From Leptolyngbyaceae cyanobacterium (GTDB lineage Bacteria; Cyanobacteriota; Cyanobacteriia; Phormidesmidales; Phormidesmidaceae): DNA of 64,000 bases. Location of the stretch: positions 1-64,000 of the forward strand of contig CBDHHL010000031.1 in assembly GCA_965263355.1 (NCBI GenBank). Reading direction: 5' to 3'. The position numbers and the translations under genes are program-made. The notes under the pieces are model-generated. The model searched no databases and was not told where the DNA came from. It worked only from the letters and a program-made list of their open reading frames with translations. This document shows, piece by piece, positions 11,456 to 54,841 of this stretch; within the stretch, counting starts at the first letter, position 1; each line of letters starts with the position of its first letter.

Positions 11456-12727
11456 CTAGGCATACTTGTAACCATCCTTACGGTGAACAAATTTGGTGAT
11501 ATAGGACAACTTTGTCCCTAACCTTTTTCTACCTTTGGGATAGATCTCACAGTCGCCATTAGAGTAAGGGCAGAGTCGCGCTGTCCATTGCCCTTTATTC
11601 TTGCCCTTAGGGATATCAACTTGCACAACATCGCCTGTCTGGTAGCCGTGTATAGGTCTCAGTGGTCTATGTTTTTGCGGATAGCCGTATTTGTCTGTCT
11701 GGCATCGTTGCCGCCCTCCTGCGCCGGTAGCTGTGACCATCAATGGACGATCCGATAAAAACACCAAGTTAGGCGTATCACCCACACAGGCTGCATCAAT
11801 ATCATGGCCCTTAGGCAGACCAAGGTTGACGCGGTTCATTTTGGTTTGAGCCCCGGTAGCTGTTTTCACAGTGCCATGAATGCTCATTACCTCGACAATT
11901 TTGAACCTGGTTGCATTGACCGCTGATGTATCTCGTAACGGTTGCTTAGCCTTGCGCTTGATGCTGGCTAGTAAATCAGGCTTACGCTTCAAGAACTGTT
12001 CAACAGGTTTATCCGATTTCCGCTGATTACACTTTTCACAAGCTAAGCAAAGATTAGAGACCCGATTACTGCCACCTTTAGACTTAGGTTGGATGTGCTC
12101 AATCTGTAAAGGTATATTTTCTTTTTTACAGTAGGTGCATTGTCGGCCCCATTTTTCTAATAAGTACTCACGGACGGTGTAACCCTGTAGTGCGCCTTGC
12201 TGATATTCGACTCCGCTGATGTCTGGATTCTGCATTAATTGAGTATCAAACTTAACTCGCTCAATCCAGATTTCAGCGACCGGGCAAAACTTGATAATTC
12301 GCTTTACCCAAGTCTCAGTAGTCAGCACCCGATGCATTAAAGACGGTGGCAGCCAGCCTTTAGGGCGAGTTCTGTTTAAAAATCTTGGTTGACGATAGCG
12401 AAGTCTAGACCGTCGTTGTCTACGAAGATTACGACGCTGTTCTAGTTTCTTCTTAATCAGTCCACCACGGTGTTGCAGCTGCATCCTCCAAACAACCTCG
12501 CCTCTATCTGTGACCAGCGCAAAACCCGTCACTTTAGAACCGGGATCGATTTTCAGTGTTAACGGATAGATAACAGGTTCTGATATTTCACGCTTAAGAA
12601 TTAAGGTGAACGGAAAGCGACGAAAGACAGCCGCTTTACCTTTGCCTAAGAACTCACGCGCTTTTGCCGGATGGACCGGCATTAAAGGTGTTTTGTTCTG
12701 GTCTATCAGAAAAACGTAGTTGCTCAT
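11456..12727 (-). CDS. iscB: IscB RNA-guided endonuclease (OMEGA system)
   Basis: N-terminal PLMP motif (KTPLMP), RuvC-I LKIDPGSK, Arg-rich bridge helix, HNH (CTYC...EHIQPKSKGGSNRVSNLCLACEKCN), RuvC-III HDIDAAC. Confidence 0.95.
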   Translation of the reverse strand: MSNYVFLIDQNKTPLMPVHPAKAREFLGKGKAAVFRRFPFTLILKREISEPVIYPLTLKIDPGSKVTGFALVTDRGEVVWRMQLQHRGGLIKKKLEQRRNLRRQRRSRLRYRQPRFLNRTRPKGWLPPSLMHRVLTTETWVKRIIKFCPVAEIWIERVKFDTQLMQNPDISGVEYQQGALQGYTVREYLLEKWGRQCTYCKKENIPLQIEHIQPKSKGGSNRVSNLCLACEKCNQRKSDKPVEQFLKRKPDLLASIKRKAKQPLRDTSAVNATRFKIVEVMSIHGTVKTATGAQTKMNRVNLGLPKGHDIDAACVGDTPNLVFLSDRPLMVTATGAGGRQRCQTDKYGYPQKHRPLRPIHGYQTGDVVQVDIPKGKNKGQWTARLCPYSNGDCEIYPKGRKRLGTKLSYITKFVHRKDGYKYA

Positions 12728-38686: not shown

Positions 38687-39433
38687 TTGATGCCTGACGC
38701 AGCGTTAGCAAGAGCTGGATTTGAATTCAATCCTGATCCCGTCATCTTTGGGAATTCACAACGCAAAATAGTCCTTGCTAACCCAGCAGCGGCTAGACTT
38801 TTTGAGTACGAAAATCCAACGGCAATGGTTGGCTTGAAAGTCTACAGTTTGGTTCCTGAATCTCTTATATCAGAAAGCGCTCATGACAGAATGTATGACG
38901 CGTTTCTACGTGGGCAGAGGACCCGTGATATGGGTTCTGAAGCTCCGCTATTTGGCAAAACACGAATGGGACGACAGATCCCTATCTGGCTACGACTATT
39001 TATTGTCAATCACGAAGGTGAAACCTATGTAGGCGAAGTCGTTCGAGACCGCACAGAATATTTACGCCAAGAAGAACAAATAAAGGAGCAAGAGCAACAA
39101 GAGCGAGATTTGATCTTGCAATTGGAGAAATCCAATAAAGAACTGAAAGCGTCCAACAAGGATATGCAAGTTCAATTGCGCCAGTCTGAGCTACAAGAAC
39201 TTGTCGTTAAGTGGCTGATCTATGCGGGTGTTTTTTTCTATCTGACCCCATTTTTATTAAGTATTTTTAGGCGAGTGCCAACGGAACTGATGTCTTTTGG
39301 CAGAGACGCTACGATCCTAGTAATCGGGGCGCTCGTTAATGCAACCGGTGCAGCTGTTGGGATTGTATCAAAGGCTAAGGACATGGCTAATGAAAAGTCA
39401 ATAGATAGCAAAACTCCTAATGCGAAACGATAG
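38687..39433 (+). CDS. PAS domain + coiled coil + two TM helices
   Basis: NPDPVIF...IVLANPAAARLFEY...MVGLKVYSLVP...GKTRMGRQIPI...VRDRTE. Confidence 0.85.
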   Translation: MMPDAALARAGFEFNPDPVIFGNSQRKIVLANPAAARLFEYENPTAMVGLKVYSLVPESLISESAHDRMYDAFLRGQRTRDMGSEAPLFGKTRMGRQIPIWLRLFIVNHEGETYVGEVVRDRTEYLRQEEQIKEQEQQERDLILQLEKSNKELKASNKDMQVQLRQSELQELVVKWLIYAGVFFYLTPFLLSIFRRVPTELMSFGRDATILVIGALVNATGAAVGIVSKAKDMANEKSIDSKTPNAKR

Positions 39434-40060: not shown

Positions 40061-41218
40061 ATGAGATACATCATCGAGACATCAGATCAATTTCAAAATG
40101 CACTCAAAGTTGTTGAGGCAAGCGATCGTATCCTGCTAAAGTCTGGCGTTTATCAACATGAAGAGTACAACACTTCATGGGAAACACGAACACGTGGAAA
40201 TGCTTTTTTTGCCAGCGGGCTAAAAGGAACAGCCGAAGATCCAATTAGGATAATGCCGTTTGGGGATGGCCCTGTGACTATACTTTCTGACGTGAATGGT
40301 TTAGCGATAAAAGATTCTAAGTATATTATTATCGAGGGCATAGAGTTTGTAGGGCCGAATTCAAACCTGAGTGCTGAGCAAGCTTTAGAGGTCTGGTGGA
40401 ACGAAAACCCTATAATGATAACGGGCAGAGGAATTGCCTTAAATCGTTGCAGCAATATCGATATAACAAGATGCCGAGTGCATCATTTCCCAGGGGCGGG
40501 AATATCCAGCAAGCACGGTTACGATATCAGCATTTACGATAACGCTATCTATAACAATTGCTGGTTCTCAATATCAGGATCGCATGGTATCGCGAATAGC
40601 GAGCCTAAAGGGCCTAGCGGATCTTCAATGAAGATCTACCGTAACCTGGTTTTTGGGAACCAATGCTGTGTTATATCAAGGGTATTTTCCAAGGGTTATG
40701 TCACTTTGGCCTTAGATGAAGGGAACGGCATTCACTTTCAGAATGATGAGAAGATGTATAGGGGCGGGCTGCTGATAAAAGAGAACATTAGCGTGTTCAA
40801 CGGGAAGGCAGGAATAGGCCTTAATAGAGTGTCGACAAACCAGCTAGACTCAGCCATCATAAAAGATAATCTGCTAGCTGGTAATTGTATAACAACAGAC
40901 TCAGGGCAGCTTAGTGAGCGAGAAAGTCAAGTCTCTTTTATCCGTAACATATTGGGCGGTGAACCTTACGTTAAGAGCATAGGGCTCTCTGCAAGCGATT
41001 ACGCTAGCAATATCAAGGCACCTGAGTTCACTAGTCTATCGGATTTACTTCCTCCCGAAGGAACAGATCTTAGGGATACTTTCACCAATATTCTGTCTCA
41101 GTTTAGTATGTTCGTTGCGCCTTGCGACCAGGAGATAAACTTGGAAAGCATGATTAAAACGATAAAAGATACTCAGCCAGCGGATATGGCGCATATAGAG
41201 TTTATAGAGCATTGCTGA
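40061..41218 (+). CDS. Right-handed parallel beta-helix protein (pectate-lyase-like; possible depolymerase)
   Basis: DRILLKSGVY, GTAEDPIRI, repeated I.I.dN.I.NN and G.GI motifs. Confidence 0.8.
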   Translation: MRYIIETSDQFQNALKVVEASDRILLKSGVYQHEEYNTSWETRTRGNAFFASGLKGTAEDPIRIMPFGDGPVTILSDVNGLAIKDSKYIIIEGIEFVGPNSNLSAEQALEVWWNENPIMITGRGIALNRCSNIDITRCRVHHFPGAGISSKHGYDISIYDNAIYNNCWFSISGSHGIANSEPKGPSGSSMKIYRNLVFGNQCCVISRVFSKGYVTLALDEGNGIHFQNDEKMYRGGLLIKENISVFNGKAGIGLNRVSTNQLDSAIIKDNLLAGNCITTDSGQLSERESQVSFIRNILGGEPYVKSIGLSASDYASNIKAPEFTSLSDLLPPEGTDLRDTFTNILSQFSMFVAPCDQEINLESMIKTIKDTQPADMAHIEFIEHC

Positions 41219-41974
41219 GTTTCAGTCCCTTAGCAGAAATTAAAGCTTTAGCAGCCGGTGAGCCTTACGTTAAGAGCATAGGGTTCTCGTTTCAGTCCCT
41301 TAGCAGAAATTAAAGCTTTAGCAGCCTTCATCTAAGGCCATGGTTGCGAAGCCCTTAGAAAAGTTTCAGTCCCTTAGCAGGGATTAAAGTTTTAGCAGCA
41401 GTTTGCTCCTCTACTGTTTCAGTCCCTTAGCAGGGATTAAAGCTTTAGTAGCTTCCCTGGAATCCCGCTAGCTCAGTGTGTAGAGAGTGTTTCAGTCCCT
41501 TAGCAGGGATTAAAACTTTAGCAGCGCTCGCACTTCAGCAAGTAAAGCGGGATATGGCCGTTTCAGTCCCTTAGCAGGGATTAAAGCTTTAGCAGCTTTA
41601 CACGCCCGCGTTAAAATTGGTAGGGCATACGAGTTTCAGTCTCTTGTTTCAGCCCCTTAGCAGGGATTAAAGCTTTAGCAGCCAGCGTCGGGATTACGCC
41701 CACTGACAGACAACAGGTTTCAGTCCCTTAGCAGGGATTAAAGCTTTAGCAGCTATTACAGCAGGGCACTGTCAGACCGCATCGGCAACTCAGTTTCAGT
41801 CCCTTAGCAGGGATTAAAGCTTTAGCAGCTTTTTGGACTTCTAACGCCCTTGTTCTAGCCTAGTGTTTCAGTCCCTTAACAGGGATTAAAGCTTTGGCAG
41901 CCCGTGCCTCTGCATACTCCTGCCGCTCGTGAGCAAAGTTTCAGTCCCTTAACAGGGATTAAAGCTTTGGCAGC
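41219..41974 (-). CRISPR. CRISPR array: 11 full 37-nt repeats, one 13-nt truncated repeat, 10 spacers
   Basis: Plus-strand consensus GTTTCAGTCCCTTAGCAGGGATTAAAGCTTTAGCAGC starting at 41219, 41289, 41363, 41416, 41489, 41560, 41646, 41717, 41793, 41865, 41938; spacers 33-39 nt except one of 16 nt; minus strand ends TGAAAC and degenerate repeats sit at the 41219 end. Confidence 0.98.
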
Positions 41975-42045
41975 TGCATGAGCTGCATCCCTTTAGCTGC
42001 AAGGCTTTTATGAGCGATTCTGGCAAAGCTCAGAAAATGGCAATC

Positions 42046-42068
42046 CTGCCAAAGCTTTAATCCCTGTT
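42046..42068 (-). repeat. 23-nt anti-repeat in leader
   Basis: CTGCCAAAGCTTTAATCCCTGTT is an exact inverted copy of part of repeats 10-11. Confidence 0.9.
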
Positions 42069-42104
42069 TTTCAAGGTTCTTCTTTTGGCTTCGCTTAGCT
42101 TTGC

Positions 42105-42297
42105 CAAAAAAAAGATGAGACTGTTCGCCATAGATCCGGCGAATCTATAAGGGCCTCACGGACTCCTTTTGCTCCTATCTTGCCTTTCGGCTGGTGTTTG
42201 CCAGTTTCCCAGCAAAAGATGCCCATAGCCCCCTAAAGAGCCTTAGCGCTGAAGCCATCCAACAACGTTTCCGCTGCCTTGTCGCCCAAACTGCGAT
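42105..42297 (-). ncRNA. Candidate tracrRNA
   Basis: Downstream of TTGACG-N18-TAATAT; several GNRA-capped hairpins; CAGUCUC and UUCAG segments complementary to the repeat 3' end; ends in U8. Confidence 0.6.
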
Positions 42298-42303
42298 GTC
42301 CTT

Positions 42304-42333
42304 ATATTAGCGTGCTATGATTTTGTACGTCAA
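42304..42333 (-). promoter_or_regulatory. sigma70 promoter for tracrRNA/array
   Basis: -35 TTGACG (42333..42328), -10 TAATAT (42309..42304). Confidence 0.6.
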
Positions 42334-42349
42334 GCATTTTTTAATATAA

Positions 42350-42526
42350 ATGGGGAAAGAGAATAGAGAAGGCAGGATTTACGCCCGCATCAAGCAAAGT
42401 CGCAAACAAAAGCTAGAGCAATATTGTAAGCTTTGGAATATATCGATCGCTGACCTATTGGAACGCTTTATTGATATGCTGCCAGAACTCCCGAAAATAG
42501 ACGCACAAAACAATGAAGACAATTAA
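42350..42526 (+). CDS. Ribbon-helix-helix regulator upstream of cas12, not in ORF track
   Basis: MGKENREGRIYARIKQSRKQKLEQYCKLWNISIADLLERFIDMLPELPKIDAQNNEDN (58 aa); overlaps the cas12 start. Confidence 0.7.
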   Translation: MGKENREGRIYARIKQSRKQKLEQYCKLWNISIADLLERFIDMLPELPKIDAQNNEDN

Positions 42527-44288
42527 AGTAAAAGTTCAGCCAACTCCGGAGACACTAATTAAATACGAGAAAATTTGCAAAGAACTTGAATGGCTATGGA
42601 ACTATGTGAGGGCCGTAGCCTTACATAATCATTGCCTTGAATGGTATGAATGGGCCGAGGGGAAAGGCGCTGATGTGCTTGAATGGCCTCTCTGGGCCAA
42701 AGAAAAAGGCGCTGACTTGTCAGGCTGCATTAAAACGCCATTGCGCTTTTCGAAAAGTGGCGGATGGATTGGAGCAGCTTGTCAGATTGCTAAAGGAGGG
42801 CCATATTTTAAGAAATCAGATAAAGCTCCTTTGATTCACTATGGCGATGGCAAAACGAAACAAGGCTATGAATTAGTGGCTGGGGATAAGCCATATGAGC
42901 CAATAAAGCCAAAGCGTCATAGATATCGCGAAGTCTCTTATTCCAGTAAAGGCACCTCAATAACCCGTTCCAGTAAAAGCACCTCAATAACCCGCGAGCT
43001 AAAAGGAAAAGGTTGGGGCCTAGACAATATGGCGTTACTAAATGCGTCACGAAGTTCTCAGGGTCTTGATGAATTAACTTGCCATAGCGATTTTGTTGGA
43101 GGGCTACTAGCTGACTTTGAAGTTGCTTGGAAGGCTTATTTAGACGGGAAACTGCTCGCCAGAAAGCAGCCAAAGTATAAGGACGGCAAGCAACGTAAAA
43201 TTAGCACGTTGAACAATAATCAAAAAACTATCCCGTTCAAAAAAGGACAATTCAACGGTCAAGGCTTAGTTTTAGAGCCGTGCGATCGCAGCTATAAAAA
43301 AAGGCTTGAAGGCTACGTAACAAAAACTTATAAGTTGACATTAAAGCCGAGCGGCTTCTATTTATGCTTAATTGCTCAAAGTGAAGCAGAAGTAGAACAT
43401 AGAGCAAAACTTAATAATCAAGGGAAAGTTTTAAGCGCCATCAAGAAAAAAGTTCTTGATAGCATTAAAGGGAAGAAAGAACAAACTAAGGCATTAGCTA
43501 ACAGTGAAGAATATCAAGCGGCATTAGCCAAGAAAAAGTCAATAGAGAATGAGTTGCCATACTTGCTAATAGAAGACTCAAAATGCGCTAAACGAACCGG
43601 GCATATGGCGGGCATTGACCCTGGGATTAAGGCAATTGTAGCGACTGACGAAGGTCATTTATTTAATCCTAACGAAAGCCGAGAACGCATACAAAATCAT
43701 ATTGAAAAGCTGCAATCAAAGCTTGATATTATGACTGAAAAAAATGATAAGCGGCTAGACCAAATATGGAAGCGTGGGCAGCGTGAAGCCACTAATAACG
43801 AGCAAAAACTTAGAGATAAAATATCCAGGCTGCATGAACGAGCTGCTAATAGTTCAAACGCGTTTAATCATAAGTTATCAACCAGGTTAGCAAGAACTTA
43901 TGATGTCATCGCCTGGGAGGCTACGGCGTTAACTAACATGGGGAGACAGACAACGCCTAAATTAGCTGAAGATGGAAGTTATTACGAGCAAAACGGCAGA
44001 GCAGCTAAGGCAGGATTGAATAGATCTTTGAAAACAGCTTGCATGGGAGATCTTAGAGCTAAGACAAAATCTAAATTAAAAGAAGCCAGGAAAACATATA
44101 CAGAAGCCGAAGCTAGATACTCCTCCCAACGCTGTCATTGTTGTGGGGAGAAAGGCATTAGACCTATTCAAGATACGTTTATTTGTTTGAATAAACAATG
44201 TGATTTATTCAATGAAAAACAAAACGCAGACACTAACGCTGCTAAGAACCACAAGAACAATGGCTTGAAGATGCTTAAAGCTAGTTGA
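42513..44288 (+). CDS. cas12: Compact type V CRISPR effector (TnpB-derived Cas12, V-U/Cas12f-like)
   Basis: 591 aa; RuvC-I GIDPG, RuvC-II IAWE, CHCC...C....C Zn finger, RuvC-III NADTNAA; adjacent array and anti-repeat; no tnpA. Confidence 0.85.
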   Translation: MKTIKVKVQPTPETLIKYEKICKELEWLWNYVRAVALHNHCLEWYEWAEGKGADVLEWPLWAKEKGADLSGCIKTPLRFSKSGGWIGAACQIAKGGPYFKKSDKAPLIHYGDGKTKQGYELVAGDKPYEPIKPKRHRYREVSYSSKGTSITRSSKSTSITRELKGKGWGLDNMALLNASRSSQGLDELTCHSDFVGGLLADFEVAWKAYLDGKLLARKQPKYKDGKQRKISTLNNNQKTIPFKKGQFNGQGLVLEPCDRSYKKRLEGYVTKTYKLTLKPSGFYLCLIAQSEAEVEHRAKLNNQGKVLSAIKKKVLDSIKGKKEQTKALANSEEYQAALAKKKSIENELPYLLIEDSKCAKRTGHMAGIDPGIKAIVATDEGHLFNPNESRERIQNHIEKLQSKLDIMTEKNDKRLDQIWKRGQREATNNEQKLRDKISRLHERAANSSNAFNHKLSTRLARTYDVIAWEATALTNMGRQTTPKLAEDGSYYEQNGRAAKAGLNRSLKTACMGDLRAKTKSKLKEARKTYTEAEARYSSQRCHCCGEKGIRPIQDTFICLNKQCDLFNEKQNADTNAAKNHKNNGLKMLKAS

Positions 44289-44377
44289 GCATCAGTAGAA
44301 ATGCTATGATTGGCAGCAGCTGACAGTATTGGAAGTGCTGACAGCTGCTTAACCACAATTTAGAAAAGGGCTAAACT

Positions 44378-45463
44378 ATGGCTTACGAATATATTACTAC
44401 TGACAGGACCAGCTCGGTTTCTTTGGGCAGTAGGCTAGAAAAACCCGTATCTAACCTAAAAGCTAAGTGCAGCAATATAATTGCCGAACAGATATTACGC
44501 AGCACCTTTTTTAGGCCACATTTCGAAGATGAACTAATAGAGTACGGAGAATCTTTGTGTTACGAGATAGCAACACGGGTGCTTGATGGAGAGCTGTTAA
44601 CACTTAAAGTCACTCTTGACAATGGTGATTGCGGAAATTACGAACTAATCACAAAAACGCCAAAAGAATTTATAAAGGCTCGTAAACGAGATCTAAGTAA
44701 ATGGGAAGACTTGCATGTCCTTTCAAACGATCCTGAAATTGTCCGATTAGCCAAGCGGGAAATAGATAATATCAATTGTTGCTTGAAATTAAATACTAAC
44801 TCTAAGCTTCAGTCAGCATCTAAGCTTCTGCGTACAGGCTTCCTGAAGTTAGAAATAGAAGATTACTTTGTCGAGCAAAGATTAAATGTGTGGGATGAAA
44901 ATATAAATTTTGCTTGCTGCACTTTGATTCCTCTTTATATTCCTGACCTATTAAATCTTGTAGAGGGTCTAACTATTCAAGACCATCTGAGAAATAGCTT
45001 CGAGGGCAATAAAAATGAAGTCTTGACGAGCTACGAAAGCGACACTTCACCGTGTCAGAGGGAAGGAAATTCTTTAGGGGTAAACCCTAGACTGCCAGTA
45101 ACAATCAAGAAAAAGAAAAAGCCCAAAAAACTAGAACGTGATTTAGAGGCAGAACTACTTTACTGGCTCGATCAAAAAGATGTGATGGCAGAACAGCAAG
45201 TGTCTTCACGAGGTAGACGAACCGATATATGGATACCTGGCAAGTGTTTTCTTGAACTTAAACGGCAAAAAGTAACAGGTGAAGATGTTTGTCAAGCAGC
45301 TAAATATTTTGCACTATACTCTCGTCAAATTATTTTAGTTGGAGAGACATTAAGCACAAGGGCCGGTGAAGGCATCGCAGCTATGAACGCGATAGCAGGT
45401 GAAAACGCTTTATCCTTTGTGACTTGGAGCGCCATTTATTCATATCTGGAAGTGTTTCTGTGA
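44378..45463 (+). CDS. Protein with C-terminal PD-(D/E)xK nuclease domain
   Basis: E...L...RTDIWIPGKCFLELK...VCQAAKY. Confidence 0.6.
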   Translation: MAYEYITTDRTSSVSLGSRLEKPVSNLKAKCSNIIAEQILRSTFFRPHFEDELIEYGESLCYEIATRVLDGELLTLKVTLDNGDCGNYELITKTPKEFIKARKRDLSKWEDLHVLSNDPEIVRLAKREIDNINCCLKLNTNSKLQSASKLLRTGFLKLEIEDYFVEQRLNVWDENINFACCTLIPLYIPDLLNLVEGLTIQDHLRNSFEGNKNEVLTSYESDTSPCQREGNSLGVNPRLPVTIKKKKKPKKLERDLEAELLYWLDQKDVMAEQQVSSRGRRTDIWIPGKCFLELKRQKVTGEDVCQAAKYFALYSRQIILVGETLSTRAGEGIAAMNAIAGENALSFVTWSAIYSYLEVFL

Positions 45464-53196: not shown

Positions 53197-54411
53197 CTAA
53201 AGGTTCAGCCTAAGCTGCTCCCCTACTAAACGGCTAGACGGTTCAACACACCCTGCCGGAAGCCCGGTCTTACAAGTGCTCCCCTGTCCATTTTTATGCT
53301 GTCGTGGGCTATCTCCAGCCCCGACAAAGTTTATATTCTTGGCTGCATTGCGGTCTCTATCGTGTAGAGCGCCGCAACTAAGACAGCGTATTTCCCGTAC
53401 AGAAAGGTCTAACTTCCCCCAATGAGAGCCACAGTCAGAGCAATACTGACTGGTAGGCTCCCATCGGTCAATGACCCTCACTTCACGGCCATACATGGCT
53501 GCTTTCGCTTCCAGCATCGTCCTGAACTCTCTCCAGCCTTGCTGGGATATTGCACGGGATAACTTACGGTTTTTCACCATACCCGATACATTCAGGTCCT
53601 CTAAGCAGATCACCTGGTTTTCTTTCACCAGCTGCGTACTGAGCTTGTGGAGGAAATCTTTACGGATATTTCGCGCCTTGGCTTTGAGCTTGGCAACACG
53701 TAACCGTGCTCGTTCTCTCCGCTTAGACCCCTTCTGCCTGCGAGACAAGACCCGTTGCGCTTTCCTAAGCTTGCGGTCTAGCTTGCTATAGTCTGGCCCT
53801 TCTATCGGCTCTCCATAGCTAGGAAAGGCAAACACCTTTATACCTAGATCGATACCGATAGAAGGATTTGTTACTGATTCCATGCTGGGCTCAGCTTCTA
53901 CAACAAAGCTCAGGTAATAATGGTTCTGCCTATCTTTGATGACGGTTACAGAACTTGGCTCACTGGGTAAAGGTCGAGACCATTTGGTTTTCACAGTCCC
54001 TATCTTTGCCAGGTAAACCTTATTTCCTTTGAGGGAAAAAGCGGTCTTTGCAAACCTAGCCGTTTGCTTGTTGTCTCTTTTTTTGAACCTAGGAAACTGG
54101 ATGGGTTTCCCCTTTCGCTTACCCTTGCGGCTATCGAAAAAGTTCTTAAATGCCGTCCCTAGATCAATCAATGATTGCTGTAGGGGTACAGCAGAAACAT
54201 CAGACAACCAGCTACGCTCAACAGTCTTTTTGGCTTGGGTGATACATTGCTTCGATAGCTCTGTACTCGTCGGCCATTTCTCACCCCTAGGAATGGCCTT
54301 GATGGTTGCCAGTGCATCATTCCAAACGACACGGGTGCAACCGAACAACTTTGCTAAGTTGGCCTGTTGCTCCTTATTTGGATAGATTCTATACTGGTAC
54401 CTGAGTTTCAT
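53197..54411 (-). CDS. tnpB: TnpB RNA-guided endonuclease
   Basis: YRIYP...FGCTRVVWN, GIDLG, LEDL, CSDCG/CLSCG, DRDRNAA. Confidence 0.97.
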   Translation of the reverse strand: MKLRYQYRIYPNKEQQANLAKLFGCTRVVWNDALATIKAIPRGEKWPTSTELSKQCITQAKKTVERSWLSDVSAVPLQQSLIDLGTAFKNFFDSRKGKRKGKPIQFPRFKKRDNKQTARFAKTAFSLKGNKVYLAKIGTVKTKWSRPLPSEPSSVTVIKDRQNHYYLSFVVEAEPSMESVTNPSIGIDLGIKVFAFPSYGEPIEGPDYSKLDRKLRKAQRVLSRRQKGSKRRERARLRVAKLKAKARNIRKDFLHKLSTQLVKENQVICLEDLNVSGMVKNRKLSRAISQQGWREFRTMLEAKAAMYGREVRVIDRWEPTSQYCSDCGSHWGKLDLSVREIRCLSCGALHDRDRNAAKNINFVGAGDSPRQHKNGQGSTCKTGLPAGCVEPSSRLVGEQLRLNL

Positions 54412-54439
54412 TATTTAAGTATACTTGGTCTGAAGCAAA

Positions 54440-54841
54440 ATGGGTGCAGATTTAAGGCGGGAAAGGCATAGCGTCACTAACCTGTTAATTCATTTGGTCT
54501 GTGTCACTAAATATCGTAGAAAAGTCCTAACTCCCGAAGGGCTTGATACCATAGAAGCCGCGTTTAACTCGGTCGCTAAAAGCCTTAACTTTCAGGTGAC
54601 AGAGTTTAATGGTGAATCCGACCATGTACACGCCCTGATTGAGTACCCACCAAAACTGTCGGTGTCTCAACTGGTCAACTCGTTAAAAGGCGTCTCTAGT
54701 AGGCGGTATGGGCAAGCTGGGCACCTTAAGCCCTACGGTAGAAAAGCTTTGTGGAGCCCTAGTTATTTTGTTAGCTCAGTAGGCGGGGCACCTCTGGATG
54801 TACTCAAAAAGTACATCCAGGAGCAAGAAAAGCCGTCCTAG
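54440..54841 (+). CDS. tnpA: IS200-type Y1 transposase TnpA
   Basis: HLVCVTKYRR, DHVH (HUH motif), LWSPSYF, YIQEQ. Confidence 0.97.
   Translation: MGADLRRERHSVTNLLIHLVCVTKYRRKVLTPEGLDTIEAAFNSVAKSLNFQVTEFNGESDHVHALIEYPPKLSVSQLVNSLKGVSSRRYGQAGHLKPYGRKALWSPSYFVSSVGGAPLDVLKKYIQEQEKPS

Follow-up and report, generated by a model that had tools for sequence, protein, structure and literature searches.

To which family does a compact type V nuclease belong whose gene lies beside a CRISPR array in phage DNA, and which RNA would guide it? We asked this of positions 41,219–44,288 of a 64,000-nucleotide (nt) stretch of contig CBDHHL010000031.1, from a Leptolyngbyaceae cyanobacterium assembly (GCA_965263355.1), referred to below as the window. 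The unit comprises an array, a gene for a trans-activating CRISPR RNA (tracrRNA), a small open reading frame (ORF) and a 591-amino-acid (aa) effector (Table 1), and our coordinates bear out the unit of array, tracrRNA and effector that an earlier sequence-only reading had recognised. That reading had proposed an active miniature nuclease, possibly of subtype V-U2 (C2c8): the phage-borne compact type V nuclease stands, apparently catalytically intact as judged from its residues, and the subtype does not. The locus is very probably a phage-encoded CRISPR-Cas12p (type V-P, 'Cas12 hacker') system that works by the mechanism proposed below. The Cas12p family was published and structurally solved in 2025, and the window locus is a divergent new member of a kind already known. 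It extends that kind by a divergent sub-clade, by a layout that is inverted, by a small ORF of its own and by spacers directed against alleles of the gene next to it. The locus is real and apparently functional; our own basis for this reading is sequence homology, the conservation of residues, covariation in the RNA and the matches of spacers. Cleavage, the protospacer-adjacent motif (PAM) and thioredoxin dependence would carry over to the window protein by analogy with a 38%-identical relative described in the literature, and we infer the RNA ends, the targets and the acquisition of spacers in trans.

The effector matches Cas12p over its full length

Against the Protein Data Bank (PDB), an 18-sequence profile (the window protein and 17 homologues) matched chain 9jfs_A, 'Cas12p', with an E value of 1.1e-257, the next chain following at 4.6e-12. 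The effector alone matched 9jfs_A at E 1.9e-110 (373.5 bits), with residues 1–584 covered in two stretches (1–55 and 56–584), and because this match runs the full length of the protein, including the N-terminal REC/WED lobe, we assign the effector to Cas12p by homology. In the 18-sequence alignment the RuvC residues D369, E469 and D573 and the zinc-finger cysteines C541, C544, C558 and C563 (CxxC...CxxC) are invariant, as the sequence-only reading had anticipated, and the acidic triad aligns with D378/E478/D582 of the solved Cas12p. Three of the four PAM-contact residues are also kept, D197, N261 and Q262 of the solved protein aligning with D171, N236 and Q237 of the effector; the region of K332 is poorly aligned.

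Full-length relatives were drawn from IMG/VR, GTDB genomes and metagenomes, the metagenome scan giving mostly TnpBs and just two further full-length relatives. Two sibling effectors are P0001, at 98% identity on a 65-kb contig, and P0002, at 82% on a 76-kb contig. A tree of 83 proteins separates two clades, one of 63 rows (support 98) to which the effector belongs and one of 19 rows with the C2c8 protein of cyanophage CL131. Within the larger clade it belongs to a 23-row sub-clade (95), sister to a 31-row sub-clade (97) holding P0027, a protein that scores 1130 bits to 9JFS and is 38% identical to the window effector. The profile searches and phylogeny for which the earlier reading had called therefore place the effector with Cas12p and far from the window's own TnpB.

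According to the main text of the preprint by Wang et al. (bioRxiv 10.1101/2025.01.20.633832), which a passage of PMC13728456 cites in its journal version as Nat Microbiol 2026, 11:81-93, Cas12p ('Cas12 hacker-1', type V-P; PDB 9JFS, 9JG3) is a phage-associated nuclease of 500–700 aa. That text lists 12 Cas12p proteins, 11 of them more than 70% mutually identical and all from metagenome-assembled genomes (MAGs) with hosts undetermined, and it is silent on natural spacer targets, hosts and alternative layouts.

The subtype suggested by the sequence-only reading is V-U2 (C2c8), to which the published locus of cyanophage CL131 belongs. C2c8 is indeed the best-scoring NCBIfam model for the effector (NF038192, V_cas_c2c8; E 4.4e-50), and CL131, whose host is a filamentous cyanobacterium, carries a V-U2 locus that is likewise minimal (PMC6293099). 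The score of 171.1 bits, however, lies below the cut-off of 350 and covers model positions 254–453 only; the CL131 effector, run as a positive control, reached 450.8 bits, whereas all eight Cas12p-like relatives tested scored 137–191. The N-terminal half of the effector matches Cas12p and not C2c8, and the tree puts the two in separate clades, so that we consider a V-U2 system very improbable. The likeness between the two loci is nevertheless real: in the same part of that report, the locus of vB_AphaS-CL131 also joins a phage-borne effector to an array with no cas1, cas2 or cas4, in what for both would be phages of filamentous cyanobacteria, and the RuvC/zinc-finger halves of the two effectors are 32% identical. 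The CL131 effector differs in its length (466 aa), in passing the C2c8 cut-off, and in its N-terminal lobe and repeat sequence; its authors, in that part of the report, found no tracrRNA.

Two further type V families were considered and rejected. Cas12f (type V-F) shows no whole-protein homology, since the Cas12f chains in the PDB match the C-terminal zinc-finger region only (E 3e-11 or weaker with the profile), and the NCBIfam Cas12f2 model gives 16.1 bits against a cut-off of 450. Cas12k, of the CRISPR-associated transposons (CAST, type V-K), has an inactive RuvC, whereas the triad is intact in the window effector, and a Pfam scan of 66 window ORFs (6 + 60, those below about 80 aa being mostly outside the scan) found no TnsB, TnsC or TniQ family, nor any Cas1, Cas2 or Cas4, in agreement with the earlier reading. 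Being phage-borne with no adaptation gene among those ORFs is a trait that the window locus has in common with Cas12p-1. Cas12k and the Cas12p family do have a similar PI-domain layout and a GTN PAM, as described in the main text of Wang et al.

A tracrRNA gene and array lie upstream of the effector, in inverted orientation

Read on the plus strand, the array repeat is GTTTCAGTCCCTTAGCAGGGATTAAAGCTTTAGCAGC. Its functional orientation is nevertheless that of the minus strand, on which every repeat ends in GAAAC directly 5' of its spacer. This orientation follows from the relatives: in 12 of them the repeats on the effector's strand end in TGAAAC, and the window repeat has this ending only if the minus strand is read. 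The two repeats nearest the tracrRNA gene (41865–41974) have two substitutions in common, which make their match to the anti-repeat perfect, and the two repeats at the far end (41219–41325) are GGG>AAA variants; both observations are what one would expect if the leader adjoins position 41974. In this putative leader no promoter of the array's own was identified.

The tracrRNA gene is homologous to the gap between effector and array of the relatives (alignments A2 and A3), and the minus strand from 42349 to 41937 aligns with that gap in nine of them. The 5' end of the gene reads A-T-C-G-C-A-GTTT, with the GTTT (42291–42288) complementary to the AAAC at the repeat 3' end (pseudoknot, R:AR-1), and the anti-repeat (42068–42046, R:AR-2) is complementary at 23 of 23 positions to the two nearest repeats and at no more than 21 of 23 to the rest. 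A sigma-70-type promoter on one side and a terminator-like hairpin (42051–42038) followed by TTTT on the other suggest a transcript from about 42297 to 42033, then 58 nt, then the array. In an alignment of 11 copies, 11 of the 16 predicted consensus pairs carry compensatory changes, and the stretch has a fold z-score of -3.1. The motif ACCGCAGTTTGGGCGG recurs in 18 tracrRNA copies across the window and 15 loci, the window form, ATCGCAGTTTGGGCGA, being a compensatory C-G to U-A change; 16 of the 18 copies are preceded by TTGAC(A/G), a gap of 17–18 nt and a TAxxAT box. The window copy also holds an insertion of about 75 nt that is absent from the relatives. Rfam returned, over 41000–44600, only sub-threshold matches to RF00043 (31 bits against 55) and RF01956 (21.5 against 60), which we take as chance.

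These features correspond to the published guide. The main text of Wang et al. describes a 185-nt tracrRNA, a 37-nt repeat and, throughout the family, an AAAC:UUUG pseudoknot between the repeat 3' end and tracrRNA positions 7–10. At the level of sequence and covariation the window locus has the same 37-nt repeat ending in AAAC, a GUUU at tracrRNA positions 7–10 to pair with it, and a long repeat:anti-repeat duplex.

The same RNA bears on another explanation, in which the protein is an IS200/IS605-type TnpB that has a 3' omega RNA as its guide and no relation to the array. The two proteins have the RuvC and zinc-ribbon core in common, Pfam names the effector OrfB_IS605, PHROG calls it 'transposase' and the NCBIfam model guided_TnpB gives 99.2 bits against a cut-off of 100 (the IS200_TnpB and IS607_TnpB models reach 47.5 against 425 and 45.1 against 350); the stems of the Cas12p guide correspond to those of omega RNA in the main text of Wang et al. 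The scaffold RNA, however, is encoded upstream of the effector gene and on the opposite strand, where it has a promoter to itself and an anti-repeat that pairs with the array; the window contains a single copy of its motif, which does not lie at the effector gene's 3' end, and the 89 nt past the stop codon gave just a sub-threshold Rfam match. The effector also has no adjoining tnpA, whereas the window's true TnpB has a Y1 tnpA beside it (54440–54841). With an enlarged REC lobe it is 187 aa longer than that TnpB (591 against 404 aa; the earlier reading had said about 190), its guide is split, it stands at no transposon end, and it branches far from that TnpB in the tree. We regard a TnpB as more improbable still than a V-U2 system, and the 3' omega RNA that the earlier reading had named finds no counterpart in the scaffold as read here.

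The Cas12p locus of the window departs from its relatives in layout. In 12 of the 17 relative loci scanned the array lies 285–516 nt downstream of the effector stop on the effector's strand, as in Cas12p-1, and the window is the sole locus among those examined whose only tracrRNA-array module is upstream and inverted. The divergent transcription of array and effector that the sequence-only reading had described is supported by the relatives' orientation and by the tracrRNA alignment, and the alternative layout would show promoter, tracrRNA and array moving as one unit. Two IMG/VR phage contigs (L005, 1–1000; L015, 1–530) carry two such modules for a single Cas12p gene: the first follows the gene and is co-directional with it, and the second, which is inverted and has another repeat, lies about 2 kb upstream.

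A promoter-like site on the plus strand (42279–42308) overlaps the tracrRNA promoter box for box. The two sites (42279–42333) have one AT-rich -10 box (42303–42309) in common; as predicted from the promoter consensus, RNA polymerase would have a single binding site there, for which the tracrRNA-array unit and the nuclease operon would compete.

Thioredoxin pocket and PAM

Cas12p recognises a GTN PAM, GTA being best, and its DNA cleavage requires host thioredoxin bound to the TB domain, as stated in the main text of Wang et al. This mechanism (tracrRNA plus crRNA, GTN PAM, thioredoxin activation) fits what can be read from the window locus. Equivalents of most of the hydrophobic thioredoxin pocket and of the contact cysteine are kept: W44, Y45, W47, L107>L69, I111>I73, L115>L77, C127>C90 and I129>I92. 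A predicted complex of effector residues 1–260 with a Nostoc thioredoxin scored 0.84, a value reached by 116 of 157 solved complexes and by 2 of 215 mismatched pairs, and the best of three controls scored 0.00. At least 92% of contacts recur between runs, the partner has a predicted local distance difference test (pLDDT) value of at least 90, and C90 contacts thioredoxin residues 32–35 (the active site) and 75. Since a solved Cas12p–TrxA complex exists, this modelled value argues for likeness to that complex and not for binding by the window copy.

The oldest spacers resemble a neighbouring gene

Two spacers match the window itself, both within the adjacent beta-helix gene (40061–41218), and these are spacers 1 and 2, the farthest from the leader and hence the oldest. 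Of the eight differences between spacer 2 and its protospacer, five fall at third codon positions, and the peptides differ conservatively (FSKGYVTLALD against FSKGFATMALD); the most reasonable origin of both spacers would thus be a diverged beta-helix allele, most simply that of a sibling phage. The phage's own allele would then escape cutting. Among the public-run variants listed, none makes the beta-helix gene match spacer 1 or 2 exactly.

Spacer 4 (41453–41488) contains, on the plus strand, GCTAGCTCAGT...TAGAG, which resembles the D-arm of a tRNA gene. Some other phage's tRNA gene may be its target, but it had no match.

Proposed mechanism and points that weigh against it

In the mechanism that we propose, the minus-strand promoter would drive a tracrRNA of about 265 nt, with the array next on the same strand, and each CRISPR RNA (crRNA) would consist of the 3' part of a repeat and its spacer. 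The terminal AAAC of the repeat would form a pseudoknot with the GUUU near the tracrRNA 5' end while the 5' part of the repeat pairs with the 23-nt anti-repeat. The nuclease, transcribed the opposite way behind the 58-aa ORF, would bind this dual RNA, recognise a 5'-GTN PAM and cut double-stranded DNA with its RuvC domain, probably not before host thioredoxin occupies the pocket of the REC lobe that contains the cysteine. New spacers, if still acquired, would need a host Cas1-Cas2 acting on host-like repeats. Competing phages would be the likely targets, the two oldest spacers stemming from diverged beta-helix alleles.

A number of observations weigh against the assignment of the locus to Cas12p and against this mechanism. 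The effector is about 38% identical to the characterised Cas12p-1 (via P0027), lacks the 38 residues 56–93 of the solved protein, and has its RNA, cleavage and PAM behaviour predicted from sequence and homology; the tree is a FastTree reconstruction with Shimodaira–Hasegawa-like support only and a long-branch TnpB outgroup. Pocket residues W102, F105 and L51 of the solved Cas12p are not kept, and five of the seven basic TB.b residues are non-basic (K149>G, K150>D, K156>Q, K159>E, K162>A). Joint mutation of all seven nearly abolished Cas12p cleavage according to the main text of Wang et al. With these basic and pocket residues lost, thioredoxin activation could differ or be weaker. The 5' flanks of the self-matching protospacers are GTA, the best PAM of Wang et al., for spacer 2 and GCA for spacer 1, so that GTN is present in one of two. 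Seven other spacers had no match of at least 72% identity in the window or in the loci then fetched (the 16-nt spacer was outside this test), blastn of the array found no match among 50,697 phage records, and among 72,556 plasmid records it gave one weak match only (E 0.2, a Picosynechococcus plasmid). The array, finally, shows wear: one spacer is 16 nt long, the 49-nt spacer contains a 13-nt partial repeat at about 41632–41645, and variant repeats stand at both ends.

Some further differences from Cas12p-1 concern this lineage. Besides its place in a sister sub-clade, the longer tracrRNA and the extra ORF before the gene, the window effector has two private in-frame tandem duplications (42636–42715, 14 aa; 42941–42994, 9 aa). 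These are lineage-specific: an 82%-identical relative, P0002, has neither, and a contig in public run X3 lacks the 42-nt duplication. What the first duplication doubles is the W-x-x-W helix, a piece of the thioredoxin pocket.

The wear of the array could also mean that the locus is a decaying relic, in which the nuclease is intact and the array and guide no longer serve interference, or serve regulation only. The short spacer, the partial repeat and the far-end GGG>AAA repeats are what such decay would leave, no external target was found for the spacers, and a regulatory role was raised by the CL131 authors for the V-U system in the part of PMC6293099 used here. Set against this, the effector retains its catalytic triad, its zinc finger and its PAM contacts, the tracrRNA gene retains its stems, its promoter and a perfect 23-nt anti-repeat, and the GGG>AAA repeats would still pair with the anti-repeat through G-U pairs. 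Contigs from three public runs (one study, two samples) carry the locus together with diverged co-occurring variants, which speaks of presence only and not of RNA ends or expression; one of them holds a different 33-nt spacer between two repeats, indicating that arrays differ among co-occurring strains. We think a relic unlikely, and prefer a functional Cas12p system.

Within the Cas12p reading, the features private to this copy can be joined, as a tentative and on balance doubtful proposal, into a natural functional variant of Cas12p for the exclusion of close kin. The oldest spacers would then derive from the alleles that sibling phages have of its beta-helix (probable tail) gene; a changed PAM (GCA for GTN) and a seed mismatch would protect the allele of the phage itself; the private 58-aa protein would set expression at the fully overlapping divergent promoters of the tracrRNA-array unit and the nuclease; and the largely uncharged TB.b loop would make thioredoxin act differently than in Cas12p-1.

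The known Cas12p mechanism is unchanged by the window locus. With its relatives the locus adds a second, well-populated Cas12p sub-clade, an alternative layout and a link to filamentous cyanobacteria, and on its own it adds natural evidence on what such arrays are aimed at, namely genes of sibling phages. The shorter REC lobe and less basic thioredoxin loop could interest engineers of small nucleases.

Table 1. Window coordinates of the locus features and of the protospacers in the adjacent gene
Feature	Position	Strand	Description
CRISPR array	41219..41974	-	11 repeats of 37 nt and 10 spacers of 16-49 nt
Leader (putative)	41975..42032	-	short stretch from tracrRNA terminator to first repeat
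tracrRNA gene	42033..42297	-	about 265 nt; homologous to relatives' effector-to-array gap; ends probable
tracrRNA promoter, sigma-70-type	42304..42333	-	TTGACG, 18 nt, TAATAT; probable start at 42297, 7 nt downstream
Small ORF	42350..42526	+	58 aa; overlaps effector start by 14 nt
Cas12p-family effector	42513..44288	+	591 aa; Pfam OrfB_IS605 and Cas12f1-like_TNB
Protospacer of spacer 2 (41326-41362)	40685..40721	+	29/37 identical; GTA immediately 5' on the guide-identical strand
Protospacer of spacer 1 (41256-41288)	40957..40989	-	31/33 identical; GCA 5' flank; mismatch at guide position 5

The small ORF

The sequence-only reading had taken the small ORF for a ribbon-helix-helix (RHH) gene. 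The ORF itself is real and conserved, in the closest relatives only: two 66-aa homologues of 90% identity lie on contigs of 71 kb and 76 kb, the latter equal in size to the contig of P0002, and tblastn found none upstream of the effector in the fetched relatives. The RHH fold finds no support, since the AlphaFold model has two helices (pLDDT 83) and no N-terminal RHH strand, Foldseek gave no match and the best Pfam E value was 0.069. That the protein regulates the divergent promoter region is our guess.

Phage setting and host

The window carries genes for large terminase, portal, major head, tape measure, minor tail, glycine-rich tail, lysozyme and primase, and the CRISPR unit sits between the tail-side genes and a block of ORFs without known function; no tRNA genes were found. 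Among the tail-side genes is one for a PAS-domain protein of 248 aa with a C-terminal hydrophobic segment (38687–39433). A 24-kb part of the window had no megablast match among phage records, and the beta-helix, PAS, glycine-rich, ORF361 and ORF211 genes had no tblastn match in the fetched relative loci.

Relatives of the effector occur in Nostocaceae, Scytonema, Anabaena and Sphaerospermopsis records and in Cylindrospermopsis phages, which points to a filamentous cyanobacterium as the putative host. In the family of one such MAG, the 3' half ...TAATCCC-loop-GGGACTGAAAC is common to the repeats of arrays in 22 of 151 genomes, and this leaves room for a host Cas1-Cas2 that could load the phage array. 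The window TnpB, 64% identical to fragments in one Nostocaceae MAG, is a weak clue to the host, and the best phage matches of the capsid gene, to Firmicutes phages at no more than 47% identity, are uninformative on it.

Other known or possible RNA-guided nucleases in the window and in related phages

A complete IS200/IS605 element occupies 53197–54841, with tnpB at 53197–54411 on the minus strand (404 aa) and a divergent Y1 tnpA at 54440–54841 on the plus strand (133 aa). At 11456–12727, on the minus strand, a 423-aa protein (PHROG 2214, 'HNH endonuclease', E 3e-128) has a Pfam RRXRR domain (E 1.6e-69) followed by HNH domains, an architecture that we take to be that of an IscB-type RNA-guided nuclease; if so, the phage would hold three RNA-guided nuclease lineages (Cas12p, TnpB and IscB-like).

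Two cultured cyanophages, Cylindrospermopsis raciborskii virus RM-2018a (MH636380; L001, 4296–5000) and phage Cr-LKS4 (OQ625504; L251, 432–1500), encode a Cas12p homologue of 668 aa that shares 34% identity with the window effector, and their fetched flanks contain no CRISPR array. The same-strand gap upstream of the gene starts with TTGACA-17-TATAAT and a tracrRNA-like scaffold whose pseudoknot motif is GTTC and not GTTT; a repeat-like piece further on ends in GAAC, which would restore the pairing. These loci may be an array-less, fixed-guide form of Cas12p, like omega RNA, and in Cr-LKS4 the scaffold is present in two tandem copies.

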